Positions 1 through 5,697 of a stretch of DNA of 5,697 nt are shown here, piece by piece (the first letter of the stretch is position 1; the number at the start of each line of letters is the position of its first letter). The notes beneath the pieces are model-generated. The model saw only the letters and a list, made by a program, of their open reading frames with translations. It had not been told where the DNA came from and searched no databases. The stretch covers positions 1 through 5,697 of IMG/VR virus record IMGVR_UViG_3300026224_000013; one strand, written 5' to 3'. A program made the position numbers and the translations under genes. The stretch is from a virus (lineage: Duplodnaviria; Heunggongvirae; Uroviricota; Caudoviricetes).

Positions 1-171
1 TCTGAGACAACATCTGGCAAGGCTGGGACGGAAGTCACTGTCGTTCTCAAAATCGGTGGAGCTGCATGACAAAGTCATCGGGCATTATCTGAACATAAAA
101 CACTATCAATAAGTTGGAGTCATTACCCTGTTATTGATGATGATATTGACAATAAGATTTATGCCTATGCT

Positions 172-897
172 ATGAATAACGCGATATCGTTTTCAAAAGT
201 TATTAATAACGATATAAAGAATGATAAGCCAGTTGTACTTACCTCTCTTGCTGAGGTTCAGAATGATTTGTGGGCCTATTGTATTAAAGTCCAAAAGGGG
301 GCTGACGTCACTTATTCTTTCCGAAAAATCAGCAGGGGGAAAGTCACAACAAATGAACCACAAAATATGACTCAGCGCGTATTCGCTTTGTTTGATAAAA
401 CAGATAAAGAGTTAAGATCATTTGATGGCAGCGCAGTCAATTTTGATGACAAAATCGATTGTATTTATATAAAAGATCAATTTTATGTATTTCATAAGAA
501 AAGTTTTGAGGCTATTGTAGGCTTGGAGGTTGAGTTTACAGAAGCTGCACAAAAAACATTAAATACAATTAAAGAACTTGATCTTATTGAAGGTTTAGAT
601 GTTATTGAACAAGCTATTCTTCATAAGCCATCACTGAGAAAAATTCTCACTCATATCGCTGAGAAAGGTAACCATACGGCTCTGGAAAAGAATGATGTTC
701 AAGCTATGAATGATGTGTTAAAAATGTTTCAGAACGAAGAGTTTAAGACCAATGAGCATGGTAAATTAGTCATAGAAGATGAGAGGCAAGGAAGAAACTT
801 TCTCAAACTGTTAAATGATTATTATAAACAAGGCATGACTACAAAAAAATACTATGGTACGGATAGCGGAAATGTGATTAACCCTATTAAGGCGTAA
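172..897 (+). CDS. Hypothetical protein, 241 aa, AT-rich orphan ORF (candidate moron/accessory gene; function unknown)
   Basis: Uninterrupted ATG-initiated ORF of 726 nt. Composition is strikingly AT-rich (about 28-30% GC by eye) against roughly 50% GC in the phage genes downstream. Product is Lys/Asn/Asp/Glu-rich with no transmembrane segment and no catalytic motif I can recognise (no Walker A, no HxH/HExxH). No obvious Shine-Dalgarno sequence. Confidence 0.65.
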   Translation: MNNAISFSKVINNDIKNDKPVVLTSLAEVQNDLWAYCIKVQKGADVTYSFRKISRGKVTTNEPQNMTQRVFALFDKTDKELRSFDGSAVNFDDKIDCIYIKDQFYVFHKKSFEAIVGLEVEFTEAAQKTLNTIKELDLIEGLDVIEQAILHKPSLRKILTHIAEKGNHTALEKNDVQAMNDVLKMFQNEEFKTNEHGKLVIEDERQGRNFLKLLNDYYKQGMTTKKYYGTDSGNVINPIKA

Positions 898-1096
898 AGC
901 ATATACTATATCTGGAACTGAAATACCAGCCGCCATCAGAAAGAACTGATGGGGCTTACAAATAGTAAGTAAATATAAAATGTTAAGGTATTTTTCATGC
1001 AAAAATGAAAATCATTGGCACAAATTAGAAACTAAGTAAATTGCTAATACTAATAACTTATTATTCTACTTACTATTTGCATGGAGTTGTTGTGAA

Positions 1097-1130
1097 TTGC
1101 TGGAAAGGTGGGTAATGTTTTTGTAGAATC
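1097..1130 (+). promoter_or_regulatory. Candidate promoter of the hok/mok mRNA
   Basis: TGTAGAAT (TG plus TAGAAT -10 at 1124-1129) with a weak -35 (TGGAAA, 1101-1106). The predicted start region just downstream, GGCGGGTGCTTGAGGCTATCTGCCTC, resembles the 5' leader of plasmid R1 hok mRNA as I recall it. Confidence 0.4.
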
Positions 1131-1182
1131 ACGGCGGGTGCTTGAGGCTATCTGCCTCGGGCACGAACACCAAAGGCAGATA

Positions 1183-1256
1183 GAGAAAAGCCCCAGTTAA
1201 CATTACGCGTCCGGCAAGACGCTTAACATTAATCTGAGGCCAATTTCATGCTTTGC
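1183..1256 (-). ncRNA. sok: Candidate Sok-type antisense RNA (antitoxin of the hok module)
   Basis: Minus-strand promoter-like elements: -35 TTGCCT (complement of 1286-1291), 17-nt spacer, -10 TAACCT (complement of 1263-1268), placed antisense over the mok start and leader as in hok/sok of R1. The minus-strand transcript can form a stem (GGCCUCAG/CUGGGGC with one G-U) ending in a U-rich tract (cttttctct). Exact ends are approximate. Confidence 0.45.
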
Positions 1257-1460
1257 ACATGTAGGTTAGCCTCTTACGTGCCGAAAGGCAAGGAGAAGCA
1301 GGCTATGAAGCAGCAAAAGGCGATGTTAATCGCCCTGATCGTCATCTGTTTAACCGTCATTGTGACGGCACTGGTAACGAGGAAAGACCTCTGCGAGGTA
1401 CGAATCCGAACCGGGCAGACGGAGGTCGCTGTCTTCGTAGACTACGAATCTAGAGAGTAA
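1248..1460 (+). CDS. mok: Mok-like in-frame leader/regulatory ORF overlapping hok (70 aa)
   Basis: ATG at 1248 is in frame with hok and adds 19 N-terminal residues (MLCTCRLASYVPKGKEKQA). This resembles the in-frame MokC extension of chromosomal HokC as I recall it. Translation of this frame is inferred by analogy only. Confidence 0.45.
   Translation: MLCTCRLASYVPKGKEKQAMKQQKAMLIALIVICLTVIVTALVTRKDLCEVRIRTGQTEVAVFVDYESRE
1305..1460 (+). CDS. hok: Hok/Gef-family type I toxin (51 aa small membrane toxin)
   Basis: Translation MKQQKAMLIALIVICLTVIVTALVTRKDLCEVRIRTGQTEVAVFVDYESRE carries the hallmark Hok/Gef/RelF pattern: N-terminal TM helix, TRKxLCE motif, periplasmic tail ending YES. AGGAG-like RBS (aaggagaag) lies 8-16 nt upstream of the ATG. 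Confidence 0.88.
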   Translation: MKQQKAMLIALIVICLTVIVTALVTRKDLCEVRIRTGQTEVAVFVDYESRE

Positions 1461-1469
1461 GAGTGACCA

Positions 1470-1491
1470 GGCGGGAGAGTAATCTCCCGCC
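1470..1491 (+). promoter_or_regulatory. Perfect 9-bp stem-loop in the hok mRNA 3' UTR (candidate fold-back/processing element)
   Basis: GGCGGGAGA-gtaa-TCTCCCGCC is a perfect 9-bp stem with a GNRA-type tetraloop (GUAA), immediately after the hok stop. Hok mRNAs are known to carry 3' structural elements (fbi) that pair with the 5' end. Confidence 0.5.
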
Positions 1492-1530
1492 ACCTCTGAT
1501 GTGTCAGGCATCCTCAATGCACCCACACTT

Positions 1531-1562
1531 AACCCGCTTCGGCGGGTTTTTGTTTTTATTTT
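1531..1562 (+). terminator. Rho-independent terminator of the hok transcript
   Basis: AACCCGC-ttcg-GCGGGTT (7-bp stem, UUCG tetraloop) followed by TTTTGTTTTTATTTT. Confidence 0.75.
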
Positions 1563-1570
1563 CAACGCGT

Positions 1571-1600
1571 TTGAAGTTTTGGATAGTGCCGGAATAGAAT
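1571..1600 (+). promoter_or_regulatory. Candidate sigma70 promoter upstream of the small ORF/DUF1367/YbcO/Q-like gene block
   Basis: -35 TTGAAG (1571-1576), 18-nt spacer, -10 TAGAAT (1595-1600). Sequence-only prediction. Confidence 0.3.
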
Positions 1601-1682
1601 CAAAAATACTTAAGTAGCGCGCAGGGAGAAGAGGGATGGACCCCGAACAGGGGAGTGCTATTTATCTGGAAGGATTCTGAAG

Positions 1683-1856
1683 ATGAAAATCGAAGAATTG
1701 CGTGAAATTTTTAGTGAAGATGGCCTCTATGCTGTGCGCGTTGAGAATGGAGAAGTTATCTACACAACGTTAATTCCTGATGATCATGTGATTTTATCTA
1801 TCGAGGCATTCATTGAATACCTTGAAAGGCTCGGTTTCAAGGTGGTTCGCGAATGA
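1683..1856 (+). CDS. Small hypothetical protein (57 aa), acidic, not in the supplied ORF track
   Basis: ATG at 1683 with GGAAGGA upstream and stop at 1854-1856. Translation is MKIEELREIFSEDGLYAVRVENGEVIYTTLIPDDHVILSIEAFIEYLERLGFKVVRE. GC content and codon use match the downstream phage genes. No family assigned. Confidence 0.45.
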   Translation: MKIEELREIFSEDGLYAVRVENGEVIYTTLIPDDHVILSIEAFIEYLERLGFKVVRE

Positions 1857-1915
1857 GTTATAATTCGTAAGCCAGCCTGAACAACTGGCAACCTACAGCG
1901 CCATTGGAGACAGCA

Positions 1916-2515
1916 ATGGCGCATATACAACTGGTCAAACAAACCTCTTCCGGATTACTTCTCCCGGCGACGCCGGAGAGTTGTGATTTTCTGCATCAAA
2001 TCAAAATAGGCGAGTGGATACACGCTGATTTTAAGCGCGTTCGTAACTACGCATTCCATAAGCGTTTTTTCAAACTTCTGCAACTCGGATTCGATTACTG
2101 GACTCCGGTCGGTGGGGCGATCACACCTCGCGAACGAGAACTGCTGTCTGGTTTCGTGGATTACCTGTGCGAATCAGTTGGTCGGGAACACACACCAGCC
2201 CTGAGTGATGCCGCAGAGCAATATCTAAATACAGTTGCGATACGCAGAACCCGGGATACGGCATTGCTAAAGTCGTTTGAGGCTTTCCGCGAGTGGGTAA
2301 CCATTCAGGCCGGATTTTACACCGAGCATCTTTATCCTGATGGTAGCCGTGGGCGTCGGGCGAAATCTATCGCGTTTGCGAATATGGACGAAACCGTGTT
2401 TCAGCAGGTTTATAAATCTGTACTGAATGTGCTGTGGAACTGGATTCTGTTCCGTAAATTTTCCTCTCCGGAACAAGTCGAAAATGTGGCCGCGCAGCTG
2501 CTGGAGTTTGCGTAA
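1916..2515 (+). CDS. Lambdoid nin-region protein, DUF1367-like (199 aa from ATG 1916; the track ORF begins at TTG 1904)
   Basis: Long ORF with GGAGA RBS 5 nt upstream of ATG 1916. Its stop TAA (2513-2515) overlaps the ATG of the next gene. Family assignment is from memory of prophage genes that precede YbcO-like and Q genes, so it is tentative; the coding call itself is firmer. Confidence 0.7.
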   Translation: MAHIQLVKQTSSGLLLPATPESCDFLHQIKIGEWIHADFKRVRNYAFHKRFFKLLQLGFDYWTPVGGAITPRERELLSGFVDYLCESVGREHTPALSDAAEQYLNTVAIRRTRDTALLKSFEAFREWVTIQAGFYTEHLYPDGSRGRRAKSIAFANMDETVFQQVYKSVLNVLWNWILFRKFSSPEQVENVAAQLLEFA

Positions 2516-2805
2516 TGGTGGACTTACGTAAAGCGACGCGGGGGCAGATGTGCACCGTCAGAATTCCTGGCTACTGCAATCACGATCCGGAAACGTCTGT
2601 GCTGGCGCATTACCGACTGGCGGGAACGTGCGGAACAGCGATAAAGCCACACGATATGCAGGCAGCGATTGCCTGTAGCTCGTGCCACGATTTAATCGAC
2701 GGGCGGGTAAAAACCAGCGATTACACCAAAGAAGAATTACGCCTGATGCATGCAGAAGGTGTTTTTCGCACACAAGAAATCTGGAGAAAGGAGGGATATT
2801 TATGA
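2515..2805 (+). CDS. YbcO-like (DUF1364) Cys-rich putative nuclease of lambdoid prophages (96 aa)
   Basis: Translation MVDLRKATRGQMCTVRIPGYCNHDPETSVLAHYRL...IACSSCHDLIDGR has the size and conserved Cys/His spacing I associate with E. coli DLP12 YbcO. Start overlaps the upstream stop (TAATG) and the stop overlaps the downstream start (ATGA). Confidence 0.75.
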   Translation: MVDLRKATRGQMCTVRIPGYCNHDPETSVLAHYRLAGTCGTAIKPHDMQAAIACSSCHDLIDGRVKTSDYTKEELRLMHAEGVFRTQEIWRKEGYL

Positions 2806-3338
2806 TTTACCCAACGAATACAGGAAAAAGCGGAGAACACCTTCGTCTCACCACGCTGGAAAGTGTCTGGATTCAGGGAAAACTACGTATGTGGGGGCGC
2901 TGGTCGTATATTGGCGGCGGCAGGTCAGGGAATATGTTTAACCAGTTGCTGGCATCCCAAAAAATGACAAAAACAGCCATCAATGAAGCCCTGCGCAGAT
3001 TGAAAAAAGCGGGAATTGATAAACCAGAGTTGGAAGCATTTTTGCGTGAGATGATCGAAGGAAAGCAAAAAAGCTGGTTAACTCACTGCACTGATGCAGA
3101 GGCACTAAAAATTGATAGTGTTATAGGTGAAGTTCTGGCGGATCATCCAGGACTACTAAATGTCCTGAGTCAGCGTTATGTGGGGCGAGGGATGAGTAAG
3201 AGAAGGATGGCAGAGTTATTAAACGAACAGTACCCAGAGTGGGCGTTGATTACATGCCGACGTCGTGTTGAGCAGTGGTTGCGTGTTGCTGAGTTCATTT
3301 TGTATTCACCTATGAGAGAAGCGTTCGATTATGCTTAA
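2802..3338 (+). CDS. Putative late-gene antiterminator, Q-like (178 aa from ATG 2802)
   Basis: ATG 2802 has a strong AGGAGGG RBS and overlaps the YbcO-like stop. The gene is the last before a promoter/terminator pair, the tRNAs and the lysis genes, which is where Q sits in lambdoid phages. Family identity is inferred mainly from position and size, not a recognised motif. The longer track ORF from 2682 is rejected as a 5' extension. Confidence 0.55.
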   Translation: MIYPTNTGKSGEHLRLTTLESVWIQGKLRMWGRWSYIGGGRSGNMFNQLLASQKMTKTAINEALRRLKKAGIDKPELEAFLREMIEGKQKSWLTHCTDAEALKIDSVIGEVLADHPGLLNVLSQRYVGRGMSKRRMAELLNEQYPEWALITCRRRVEQWLRVAEFILYSPMREAFDYA

Positions 3339-3345
3339 AAAATCA

Positions 3346-3374
3346 TTGCAAAATGAGCCACAAACTGCTTCAAT
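3346..3374 (+). promoter_or_regulatory. Candidate late promoter (pR'-like) immediately downstream of the Q-like gene
   Basis: -35 TTGCAA (3346-3351), 17-nt spacer, -10 TTCAAT (3369-3374), about 60 nt upstream of a strong intrinsic terminator. This matches the pR'-to-tR' short-transcript layout of lambdoid phages. Weak consensus match. Confidence 0.25.
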
Positions 3375-3434
3375 TTTGGTACGCTTCGCAAAGCTGTATC
3401 GCGAGGCGAATCAAGCGCAATTGAACTTTAATAG

Positions 3435-3462
3435 AACCCGCCATCGAGCGGGTTTTGTTGTT
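3435..3462 (+). terminator. Rho-independent terminator (candidate tR')
   Basis: AACCCGC-catcga-GCGGGTT (7-bp stem) followed by TTGTTGTTTCTG U-rich tract. Confidence 0.55.
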
Positions 3463-3595
3463 TCTGCGGTGTTATATAAGAAACGACATTTAATAATCTC
3501 CTTCAAAATAAATTTGTTTATATATTGTCATGTATATTTTAAGTGAAAGTGAAATATTCACATAAAATAAAAACATATAAATAAATTTACATAAC

Positions 3596-3624
3596 TTGAC
3601 GCAAAGTGTTGTTGCGATTGGAAT
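3596..3624 (+). promoter_or_regulatory. Candidate promoter with AT-rich UP-like region upstream of the tRNA genes (alternative pR' candidate)
   Basis: -35 TTGACG (3596-3601), 17-nt spacer, -10 TGGAAT (3619-3624), preceded by about 130 bp of extremely AT-rich DNA (3470-3595) and about 75 nt upstream of the first tRNA. Confidence 0.3.
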
Positions 3625-3702
3625 ATTAAATCGTATCATCGAAAACGGTTCTGAGGGGGAACTCTTCTTTGCTCGGTGATATCGCTCCCCTGAAGAACCA
3701 AT

Positions 3703-3778
<76 letters not shown>

Positions 3779-3781
3779 TAT

Positions 3782-3856
<75 letters not shown>

Positions 3857-4156
3857 GAGAAACAAGCCTTATTGTATTGCGGCACTGGCGTATTTTTTAT
3901 TACGTGGGAGCAGGTTGTATTGAAAAAGCATTCTGTTCTCTGGCTATGATTTGAGGCCGGGTGTAGCCTCAGTGCTGATTTTTTACGGCAGCAGAATGGT
4001 GCATTATCGGTGGAGATTTTGTATTTCCTGGCAGGGTCGGTGATGCATCATTCTGGTGTTGTAAAAGCACCACAGAGGCGTTCCTCAGTGCGAGGGTGGT
4101 TTAAAGAGTCGGTTTAGCGGGAAACCACAGTATCCATACAGAACGGAATACTTCGG

Positions 4157-4182
4157 GAGGCACCCGACGCCTCGATTTTATT
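4157..4182 (+). terminator. Terminator-like hairpin with U-tract inside the non-coding block
   Basis: GAGGC-acccgac-GCCTC (5-bp stem) followed by GATTTTATT. Confidence 0.4.
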
Positions 4183-4212
4183 ACAATTAAAAATTCATCC
4201 CTTGCATTGACC

Positions 4213-4241
4213 AACCGCCTCCACCAGGCGGTTTTTTTTAT
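4213..4241 (+). terminator. Strong rho-independent terminator inside the non-coding block
   Basis: AACCGCCT-ccacc-AGGCGGTT (8-bp GC-rich stem) followed by TTTTTTATT. Confidence 0.7.
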
Positions 4242-4421
4242 TCTGAATTCAGTTTCTTCATGGCTCGCTACGGCGGGCCTTTTTCATATCCGCGCCACGC
4301 CCGGCGCACATCAAAAACCACAGAGCCTTTCAGGGGTGAGCTTACGGGATGGTCAGTGTGACTTTCTCTGTGGGCTGGTCACCCCCGGGCGGAGGCTCAC
4401 CCACTAAAAGGAAAAGTCACG

Positions 4422-4847
4422 ATGTTTGGTATTTTCAAAAAGAAAACCCGCAAGGCCATTACCGAAGTGAAGAAGATGGAGAACCGCGACGCAGTGGAGG
4501 CGACCGTCTGGGGTGCGTATTCCATTGCATACGCTGACGGCACCTGCGACGCGAAAGAAATCGCAGTACTGGAGAAAACCATTGCAGCACTTCCTGCCTT
4601 TGCACCGTTCTCCGGCGAGATTGCACAAATGAGTGCAAATATCCGCGCCCGTTATGAAGCGTCGCCGCGCTCTGCTAATGCTGAAGCCCTTCGCCAGCTG
4701 GCTGATGTTGCCGGTACTGATGACGCAGTTAATGTGCTGTGCCTGTGTCTGGATATCGCTGACCAGGATGGCATTGGTCCGGATGAAGAAGCACAGCTCA
4801 AGAAAATTGCTCAGGCGCTTCAGCTACCGCTGGAGCAGTACCTGTGA
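4422..4847 (+). CDS. TerB-like (tellurite-resistance TerB domain-like) protein, 141 aa
   Basis: ATG 4422 with AAAGGAAAAG upstream. Soluble, acidic, mostly helical-looking sequence with paired Asp-rich segments (AYADGTCDAKEIAVLEKTIAA... and ...LCLCLDIADQDGIGPDEEAQLKKIAQAL) as in TerB-fold proteins. The family call is from pattern memory, not a search. Confidence 0.65.
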   Translation: MFGIFKKKTRKAITEVKKMENRDAVEATVWGAYSIAYADGTCDAKEIAVLEKTIAALPAFAPFSGEIAQMSANIRARYEASPRSANAEALRQLADVAGTDDAVNVLCLCLDIADQDGIGPDEEAQLKKIAQALQLPLEQYL

Positions 4848-4996
4848 AAAGTGCGCGTCTTGTACTGGCTGCCATCCTGCTGTTTCTGGTAGTGGCGGTG
4901 GATTTCACCGGACGCCTGATGTCAGTGCTTGCCGATGGCGTGCTGGTGGCGATGGCGCTGGTCGTGCTCCGGCCTTTACTGCGTAAATCTGAATAA
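4844..4996 (+). CDS. Putative small membrane protein (50 aa, GTG start overlapping the upstream stop), not in the ORF track
   Basis: GTG 4844-4846 overlaps the TGA 4845-4847 of the TerB-like gene (GTGA). Translation VKSARLVLAAILLFLVVAVDFTGRLMSVLADGVLVAMALVVLRPLLRKSE has two hydrophobic stretches and a basic C-terminus. An internal ATG (about 4907-4909, same frame) would give only 29 aa. Confidence 0.35.
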   Translation: MKSARLVLAAILLFLVVAVDFTGRLMSVLADGVLVAMALVVLRPLLRKSE

Positions 4997-5043
4997 CACC
5001 ACACAAAAGGCATCTGCGGGTGCCTTTGATGGGGTGTTTTTAT

Positions 5044-5069
5044 GGGCCGTTGGTGGCCCTTTTTTATTT
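5044..5069 (+). terminator. Hairpin with U-tract upstream of the holin gene (terminator-like or regulatory)
   Basis: GGGCC-gttggt-GGCCC followed by TTTTTTTATTT. A weaker hairpin AAAGGCA-tctgcggg-TGCCTTT (5006-5027) lies just before it. Confidence 0.4.
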
Positions 5070-5083
5070 ACAGGAGAAAAAGT

Positions 5084-5449
5084 ATGTCTGAACCCTTATC
5101 CGGTTCCGGCACGGCTGCGGCGCTCGGCGGGGCGACGGTATTCGGGCTGTTTACCGGAACGGATTTCGGGATTGTGTTTGGTGCGTTCGCCGGGGCGTTG
5201 TTTGTGGCAACGATGCCGCAGAAGATTTCAGCCTGGCGTGTGGCGGCACATTTTCTGGTGTCGTTCATTGTTGGTGTACTGGGGGCGCGTGTACTGTCAG
5301 CCTGGATTGCATCAAAAACAGGTTATGACGGTACATCTGCGGAGGCACTGTGTGCGGTGCTGGTGGCGGTGGGGCTTAATCTGCTGTTCTGCGTGCTGGT
5401 GATACGTGCACGCGGGAACGTTTCAAAAATCCTTTCATTCCGGAGGTGA
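5084..5449 (+). CDS. Putative holin (121 aa, multi-TM, Gly/Ala-rich)
   Basis: ATG 5084 with AGGAG RBS (5072-5076). Three to four hydrophobic segments and a charged C-terminus (RARGNVSKILSFRR). Stop TGA 5447-5449 lies 2 nt before the endolysin ATG. The track ORF start at 5042 sits inside the upstream hairpin and is rejected. Confidence 0.6.
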   Translation: MSEPLSGSGTAAALGGATVFGLFTGTDFGIVFGAFAGALFVATMPQKISAWRVAAHFLVSFIVGVLGARVLSAWIASKTGYDGTSAEALCAVLVAVGLNLLFCVLVIRARGNVSKILSFRR

Positions 5450-5451
5450 GC

Positions 5452-5697
5452 ATGTCGGGTAAATTCAGATTCAGTCGTCGCAGTGAAAAAAATCTGGAGG
5501 GCGTCAAACCACAGCTGGTTGCTGTCGTTCGCCGTGCCCTTGAGCTGACGGAGGTTGATTTCGGTATTACGGAAGGGCTGCGCACGAAAGAACGCCAGAA
5601 ACAGCTGGTCGCGGAAGGGAAAAGCCAGACCATGAACAGCCGCCACCTGACCGGTGATGCTGTGGATGTTGTGGCTTATGTTGGCAGCCAGGTGTCA
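5452..5697 (+). CDS. Endolysin, peptidase M15 family (L-alanyl-D-glutamate peptidase / VanY-like), 5' partial (82 codons, runs off the window)
   Basis: Translation MSGKFRFSRRSEKNLEGVKPQLVAVVRRALELTEVDFGITEGLRTKERQKQLVAEGKSQTMNSRHLTGDAVDVVAYV... contains the SxHxxGxAxD zinc-binding signature (SRHLTGDAVD) typical of M15 peptidases. GGAGG RBS upstream. Confidence 0.8.
   Translation, partial: MSGKFRFSRRSEKNLEGVKPQLVAVVRRALELTEVDFGITEGLRTKERQKQLVAEGKSQTMNSRHLTGDAVDVVAYVGSQVS

Follow-up and report, generated by a model that had tools for sequence, protein, structure and literature searches.

A SokW-type antisense RNA gene, probably expressed, in the hok/mok locus of a lambdoid Escherichia coli prophage

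The window analyzed here, a stretch of 5,697 nucleotides of viral DNA (IMG/VR record IMGVR_UViG_3300026224_000013, positions 1 to 5,697), is part of a lambdoid prophage in which a hok locus lies between a KwaB-like gene and DUF1367/YbcO/Q-like genes (Table 1). The 170 nt of the window that lie upstream of the KwaB-like ORF showed no KwaA-like partner. A KwaB-like gene also precedes hok in E. coli CEA224S (NZ_CP166080), whose hok allele is identical to that of the window over positions 1095-1320. The small ORF that follows the hok locus is succeeded, in this order, by DUF1367, the YbcO nuclease gene, a DUF1133/Q-like antiterminator gene, tRNA-Thr, tRNA-Gly, a TerB-like ORF, DUF3927, a holin gene and the start of a further ORF, whose counterpart in one relative (L002) carries the annotation M15 metallopeptidase. 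In Stx phages, too, tRNA genes occupy the position behind the antiterminator gene.

Table 1. Features of the hok/mok/sok locus and its surroundings, in window coordinates.
Feature	Position	Strand	Basis
KwaB-like ORF, directly upstream of hok	172-897	plus	PF16162 Kiwa defence KwaB-like domain, E = 9e-17
Candidate hok promoter, TGGAAA-17-TAGAAT	1101..1129	plus	promoter scan, 9/12
Predicted full-length hok mRNA	1136..1556	plus	Rfam RF01794 start, fold, terminator
Sok stem-loop and U-rich tract CUUUUCUC, presumed intrinsic terminator	1241..1189 (stem-loop), 1190..1183 (tract)	minus	fold
Predicted Sok antitoxin RNA, 71 nt, 5'-GCAAAGCAUGAAAUUGG...GGGGCUUUU-3'	1256..1186	minus	sokW misc_RNA of AF125520 transferred via alignment
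mok translation initiation region, predicted Sok target (SD GAGG 1236-1239, ATG 1248-1250)	1236..1250	plus	sequence
mok ORF, 70 aa, in frame with hok	1248..1460	plus	ORF list; arrangement as in mokW and the R1-type locus
Predicted Sok single-stranded 5' tail GCAAAGCAU, 9 nt, with the anti-start codon of mok	1248..1256	minus	unpaired in MFE and centroid structures
Sok promoter -10 hexamer, TAACCT	1268..1263	minus	direct sequence reading; same in Sp5/933W
Sok promoter spacer, 17 nt	1285..1269	minus	direct sequence reading
Sok promoter -35 hexamer, TTGCCT	1291..1286	minus	direct sequence reading; same in 933W
hok SD, AAGGAG	1290-1295	plus	
hok toxin ORF, 51 aa, MKQQKAMLIALIVICLTVIVTALVTRKDLCEVRIRTGQTEVAVFVDYESRE	1305..1460	plus	Pfam PF01848 Hok/gef, 81.1 bits, E = 4.3e-23
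hok mRNA intrinsic terminator	1531..1556	plus	terminator scan: stem 1531-1548, 7 pairs, then TTTGTTTTTA
Small ORF after the hok locus	1683-1856		
Tandem tRNA-Thr(TGT) and tRNA-Gly(TCC), downstream of the Q-like antiterminator gene	3703-3856	plus	

The hok/mok/sok locus of the window is complete, with the hok ORF, the SD sequences, fbi and the terminator all intact. The candidate hok promoter ends 7 nt before position 1136, where a full-model match to Rfam RF01794 begins (1136-1310, plus strand; 113.2 bits against a gathering threshold of 59, E = 5e-26), and its TAGAAT is conserved among relatives. The mRNA predicted from 1136 to 1556 has a minimum free energy (MFE) of -179.7 kcal/mol (z = -8.1) and pairs its 5' and 3' ends. 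In the MFE structure, tac (GGGUGCUUGAGG, 1136-1147) is predicted to pair with fbi (CCUCAAUGCACCC, 1512-1524), the tac/fbi arrangement of hok mRNAs, whose end-pairing mechanism is summarized in PMC9841398. The MFE structure of the 3'-truncated mRNA (1136-1511) has another 5' hairpin and a partly paired SD and does not reproduce the tac/ucb refolding of R1, by which the mok SD and the Sok target are exposed; a thermodynamic prediction over 376 nt is not decisive, and visual inspection suggests a possible pairing of GGGUGCUU with AAGCCCC (1188-1194). The in-frame 70-aa mok was considered as an unusual feature and dropped, as the R1-type plasmid locus also has an in-frame mok, with its ATG 57 nt 5' of the hok ATG.

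Conservation was assessed across 50 distinct leaders, taken from prophage contigs of IMG/VR and from phage 933W. When the MFE structure of the window was mapped on the 50 full-length mRNAs, 94% of the cells were paired, compared with 35-43% when the partners were slid, and 13 pairs were changed on both sides, compared with 7.2 +/- 1.5 in shuffles; the mapped structure came from one of the aligned sequences, that of the window, which biases these figures in its favor, and most helices are nearly invariant. The tac/fbi end helix is 99.8% paired but almost invariant, so that covariation adds little there. No clear covariation was detected between the variable patch at the mok start and its predicted 3' partner (helix 6, 87.8% paired, one pair changed on both sides). 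In the 5' hairpin of the hok leader (1148-1184 of the plus strand; alignment columns 13-49), a compensatory change was observed at columns 15/47 (A-U, 31 relatives; G-C, 16 relatives), which supports this stem without relying on the sequence of the window.

On the minus strand, within the 5' part of mok, lies TTGCCT-17-TAACCT, a pair of hexamers that an earlier, sequence-only reading of this DNA had put forward as the promoter of a Sok antitoxin RNA. Direct reading of the sequence confirmed the coordinates and features given there, and also the weak consensus match of the -10: TAACCT scores 3/6 and TTGCCT 4/6, together 7/12. An extended -10 is absent. The -35 retains its TTG, and the -10 retains T1, A2 and T6; these are the most important positions of sigma-70 promoters. 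The hexamer match by itself is at chance level, being statistically indistinguishable from 19 other sites of equal or better quality that a script counted in the 5.7-kb window (a density of about 1.7 per kb per strand), and a sigma-70 consensus scan of positions 900-1700 did not report it. Because the scans list neither the Sok promoter nor the Sok terminator, consensus matching is unusable as support, which comes instead from context and homology. The site is homologous to the promoters of R1 Sok and SokW, and it rises above chance because its -35, spacer, -10 and +1 are identical to those of the 933W/Sp5 sokW promoter and because 43/50 relatives keep the site.

The predicted +1 of Sok is G1256, 7 nt past the -10, at the same distance as in R1. 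A transcript 1256..1186(-) would cover both the start codon and the SD of mok, in line with the antisense course claimed for it. Folding of the 74 nt from 1256 to 1183 on the minus strand gave a free 5' tail of 9 nt and one long hairpin followed by CUUUUCUC, at -30.2 kcal/mol (z = -4.97), and none of 200 shuffled sequences was equally stable. The transcript is predicted to end in CUUUU at 1190..1186, after the long hairpin, and the fold thus bears out the stem and U-rich tract that had been placed near 1183-1195, although a simple terminator scan did not call this hairpin. In silico, the short RNA fits a molecule of about 64-71 nt with a free 5' tail, one stable stem-loop and a U-tract. Complementarity to the mok initiation region, the lack of which had been proposed as a refutation, comes with any antisense RNA encoded in cis, and such a test cannot fail. 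The proposed Sok-type geometry is that of phage 933W (GenBank AF125520), in which sokW is annotated opposite mokW/hokW as a misc_RNA of 71 nt, with ends that may be annotated by homology rather than mapped. In the alignment, sokW, mokW and hokW of 933W map to positions 1256..1186(-), 1248-1460 and 1305-1460 of the window, in agreement with the proposed geometry. The hokW-sokW locus is also found in AP000422.

The strand of the small RNA deserves comment, as RF01794 is named 'sok antitoxin (CssrC)' and its full-model match of 113 bits lies on the plus strand. Taken literally, the small RNA of the locus would be a plus-strand molecule of positions 1136-1310, a sense fragment of the hok leader, and there would be no minus-strand antisense RNA. 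We consider this extremely unlikely. The model runs from the 5' end of the hok mRNA to the hok AUG, so that it describes the hok leader and not the Sok of about 70 nt on the minus strand. Moreover, GenBank places sokW on the opposite strand, the northern probe used for sokW (YO-592) is plus-sense and so detects a minus-strand RNA, and a sense fragment would be unable to block mok translation by pairing. In the RefSeq records of these hok loci, the hok CDS was found with no sok RNA annotated. Because RefSeq lists the hok CDS only and the Rfam model matches the mRNA-sense strand, automated annotation tends to miss the antitoxin or to assign it to the wrong strand.

The sequence-only reading had left open whether so weak a -10 still expresses the antitoxin. 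By analogy, published work on the same promoter sequence would largely answer this question. From -35 to +1, the 933W promoter is 100% identical to that of the window. In a lysogen of Sp5 (Sakai prophage 5), Takada et al. (2021, PMC8621323) saw sokW RNA by northern blotting with the plus-sense probe YO-592; protection from HokW was lost in a 'pro-less' promoter mutant constructed with primers YO-421/YO-422 and was regained in part when sokW was provided in trans. The antitoxin activity of sokW was partly dependent on RNase III and Hfq (PMC8621323). By our own reading of the primers, YO-421/YO-422 change TAGGTTA of the plus strand to CCGGCTC, so TAACCT becomes GAGCCG and the mutation falls on the -10. 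Another probe of that study, YO-597, corresponds to the Sp5 sequence CCTTGCCTTTCGGCACGTAAGAGGCTAACC and is identical to window positions 1293..1264(-).

These data bear on the idea that the promoter is a decayed relic, from which Sok would be barely or not transcribed, the locus being an inactive remnant kept silent in some other way, for instance through the folding of hok mRNA or the weakness of the hok promoter. The 3/6 and 4/6 hexamers without an extended -10, unlisted by the consensus scan, would be expected of such a relic, and chromosomal hok loci (hokA/B/C) have been reported to be unable to mediate post-segregational killing (bioRxiv 10.1101/2025.08.07.668861). We nevertheless find decay unlikely. 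In Sp5, a detectable and functional SokW is made from a promoter with the identical sequence between -35 and +1 (PMC8621323), the key positions of both hexamers are retained, the promoter is kept in 43/50 relatives while the adjoining 22 nt vary freely, and hok has kept its ORF, SDs, fbi and terminator. A hok locus that is intact but lacks Sok is toxic even at single copy (PMC9841398), which argues that the persisting, intact allele of the window has a working antitoxin. The weak -10 appears to be normal for the hok/sok family rather than a sign of decay, because TATCCT of the R1-type locus is also a poor match to the consensus, although R1 Sok has been described as having a strong promoter.

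Among the 50 relatives, the exact TTGCCT-17-TAACCT is the prevailing form (43/50). The entropy per column is 0.0 bits in the -35, which shows no variation in its aligned columns, 0.14 in the -10, 0.13 in the spacer and 0.23 in the Sok hairpin, whereas it reaches 0.86 in the Sok 5' tail region (1241-1256), the most variable part of the locus. The Sok hairpin is nearly invariant, and its mirror hairpin on the mRNA strand (helix 5) is 99.7% paired, with 3 compensatory pairs. The mok SD GAGG is invariant, and the mok ATG is present in all but one of the aligned relatives. In a search of one genome per species, the exact Sok promoter gave 7 matches, in E. coli, in Shigella and in MAGs or assemblies of other taxa, where the short contigs concerned look like contamination; two promoter copies were found in one genome only, and these matches are too few for a co-residence statistic.

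Several relatives depart from the common form. A few read TTGACC as the -35 through a 1-nt insertion, a variant closer to the consensus that is found in L006, L010, L049, L050 and L061 (aligned positions 1269-1291), with a spacer of 18 nt; in L049 and L061, an extra 1-nt deletion by the -10 brings the spacer to 17 nt, and the -10 itself is CAATCT. L006 and L010 also have a 2-nt deletion past the mok ATG, which would shift mok out of the hok reading frame. In L020, L049 and L061, about 20 nt of the Sok stem-loop are missing (aligned positions ~1197-1235) and a shorter, different sequence, CCCGA...CTATAAATCGAAG, is found, with 3 compensatory pairs at the base of the helix; this looks like a distinct type of Sok hairpin on the same hok backbone. 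In L040, ACG replaces the mok ATG (aligned positions 1248-1250), which could silence the translation of mok and hence of hok.

Conservation alone is no proof of promoter function, because positions 1263-1291 lie within conserved predicted mRNA helices (7-9) and beside the hok SD. The hexamers might thus have been kept solely by constraints on the plus strand, namely the mok codons, the hok SD and the mRNA helices, with the antisense transcript starting elsewhere; another weak hexamer pair, TTAACA-18-TAGCCT, is indeed present at 1329..1300(-). This explanation is very improbable in our view. In Sp5, the mutation that we read as equivalent to a change of TAACCT removed antitoxin activity, part of which was regained with sokW in trans, and the 5' end of R1 Sok lies 7 nt past the homologous -10. 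The alternative site, for its part, finds no support in any homologue.

A hypervariable patch (1241-1262) separates the mok SD from the Sok -10; it comprises the 5' tail of Sok, the context of the anti-AUG and the first five codons of mok. The 22 nt past the -10 occur in 18 variants among the 50 distinct relatives, and the variant of the window recurs in several IMG/VR contigs. In Shigella flexneri SFBU1023 (CP182556.1), two co-resident copies (L089 and L090) share the Sok promoter and differ in their 5' ends, GTTCAGCATGGATTGA and GTGAGACATAGATTGG; this is a single case. E. coli O157:H7 has 13 hok genes, and R1 hok escapes silencing by chromosomal Sok RNAs (PMC9841398).

We tentatively raise the possibility that the 1241-1262 patch is a diversifying 'address label', by which each prophage Sok would silence its own hok mRNA only. 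If so, the modules of a multi-copy cell would be independently addictive or inducible, similar to the antisense-RNA loops that define plasmid incompatibility groups, and a variable tail acting as the specificity determinant would explain how many hok/sok copies (up to 9 places per genome) coexist in E. coli without cross-silencing. The two tails of SFBU1023 and the failure of chromosomal Sok RNAs to silence R1 hok fit a specificity role, but relaxed constraint explains the same data; the two are inseparable here, because a cis-antisense pair stays complementary whatever its sequence.

Taken together, these results make it very probable that the lambdoid E. coli prophage carries a complete type I toxin-antitoxin module, a hokW/sokW- or hokD-type allele of hok/mok/sok, in which sok occupies positions 1186-1291 of the minus strand. 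The sok product would be an antitoxin RNA of the SokW type, which is probably expressed. That the window allele is transcribed, where exactly its RNA begins and ends, and that it acts as an antitoxin are inferred by analogy with the Sp5 homologue, which has an identical promoter and from which the experimental support comes. The minus-strand promoter and short hairpin RNA belong to an ordinary, characterized hok/sok module, already known and first annotated in phage 933W. The prophage thus carries a complete Hok toxin module that is probably regulated, the weak-looking promoter being the normal form in this family.

The module may operate as follows. A sigma-70 promoter within the first mok codons would start transcription around G1256, and Sok would be transcribed continuously from this internal promoter as an RNA of about 71 nt, in which a free 5' tail of 9 nt is followed by a single long terminator hairpin. 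Judging from R1 Sok and Sp5 SokW, this tail would make contact with hok mRNA at the mok start region, after the mRNA has been processed at its 3' end and refolded. A full duplex over the SD and ATG of mok would then block the translation of mok, and hence the coupled translation of hok, and RNase III would cleave the duplex. Should Sok synthesis stop or Sok be lost, as SokW is after prophage induction, the stable hok mRNA would be translated and Hok would damage the inner membrane. The prophage relative, hokW-sokW of Sp5, has been linked to lysis and phage release (PMC8621323).

The closest characterized system, hokW-sokW of the Shiga-toxin phages 933W/Sp5, is the same type of locus in a lambdoid prophage, and the matched stretch is about 94% identical. 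In addition to the promoter, the two loci share without change the Sok hairpin with its U-tract (1186-1240) and the SD sequences of both mok and hok; in each, mok runs in frame with hok, and Hok has 51 aa. From 1136 to the hok ATG, the differences are leader substitutions at 1164 and 1174 and 7 substitutions clustered in 1241-1255, which correspond to +2 to +16 of Sok and to mok codons 2-3. With 7 differences from the tested SokW in the tail region, RNA stability or pairing kinetics could differ. The Hok C terminus is SRE in the window and SEK in 933W. Homology stops about 24 nt past fbi, and the clear hok terminator of the window (stem 1531-1548) is absent from 933W. The surroundings differ as well, as the 933W locus is flanked by L0139 and a YgiW/YdeI-like ORF, in contrast with the KwaB-like gene and the DUF1367/YbcO/Q-like genes of the window.

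With respect to chromosomal loci, this type of hok locus was found in 4720/5426 complete E. coli genomes, at a median of 2 and up to 9 places per genome, and it matches 79 phage records. Among the best matches listed, the nearest chromosomal relatives are 93-96% identical over 1090-1570, and RefSeq names them hokD or Hok-Gef family, which relates the window to hokD (relF) and hokC (gef) of E. coli. The K-12 copy of hokD presumably sits behind relBE without a leader of its own, and the window would differ from it in having a full leader with sok.

Lastly, the type system is parB (hok/sok) of plasmid R1. In an R1-type IncFII plasmid locus, TTGCGC-17-TATCCT aligns exactly over TTGCCT-17-TAACCT of the window, within a common GTAAGAGGCTA-CCT block. 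The 5' end of R1 Sok was fixed by means of anti-Sok PNA sequences, its tail, GACUAGACAUA, being deduced from that of PNA-1 (TATGTCTAGTC). In both systems, +1 lies 7 nt past the -10, a free 5' tail with the anti-AUG precedes a single hairpin, the 70-aa mok is in frame with hok, and the ends of the mRNA pair through tac and fbi. R1 Sok is an unstable RNA of 64 nt made from a strong promoter, with an 11-nt tail that makes the first contact with hok mRNA (PMC1635323), compared with the 71 nt and 9-nt tail predicted for the window. The leaders are 71% identical in alignment columns, and HokW is 44% identical to R1 Hok (Takada et al., PMC8621323). The R1 locus is plasmid borne and acts in post-segregational killing, in contrast with the lysis and phage release to which the prophage relative was linked.
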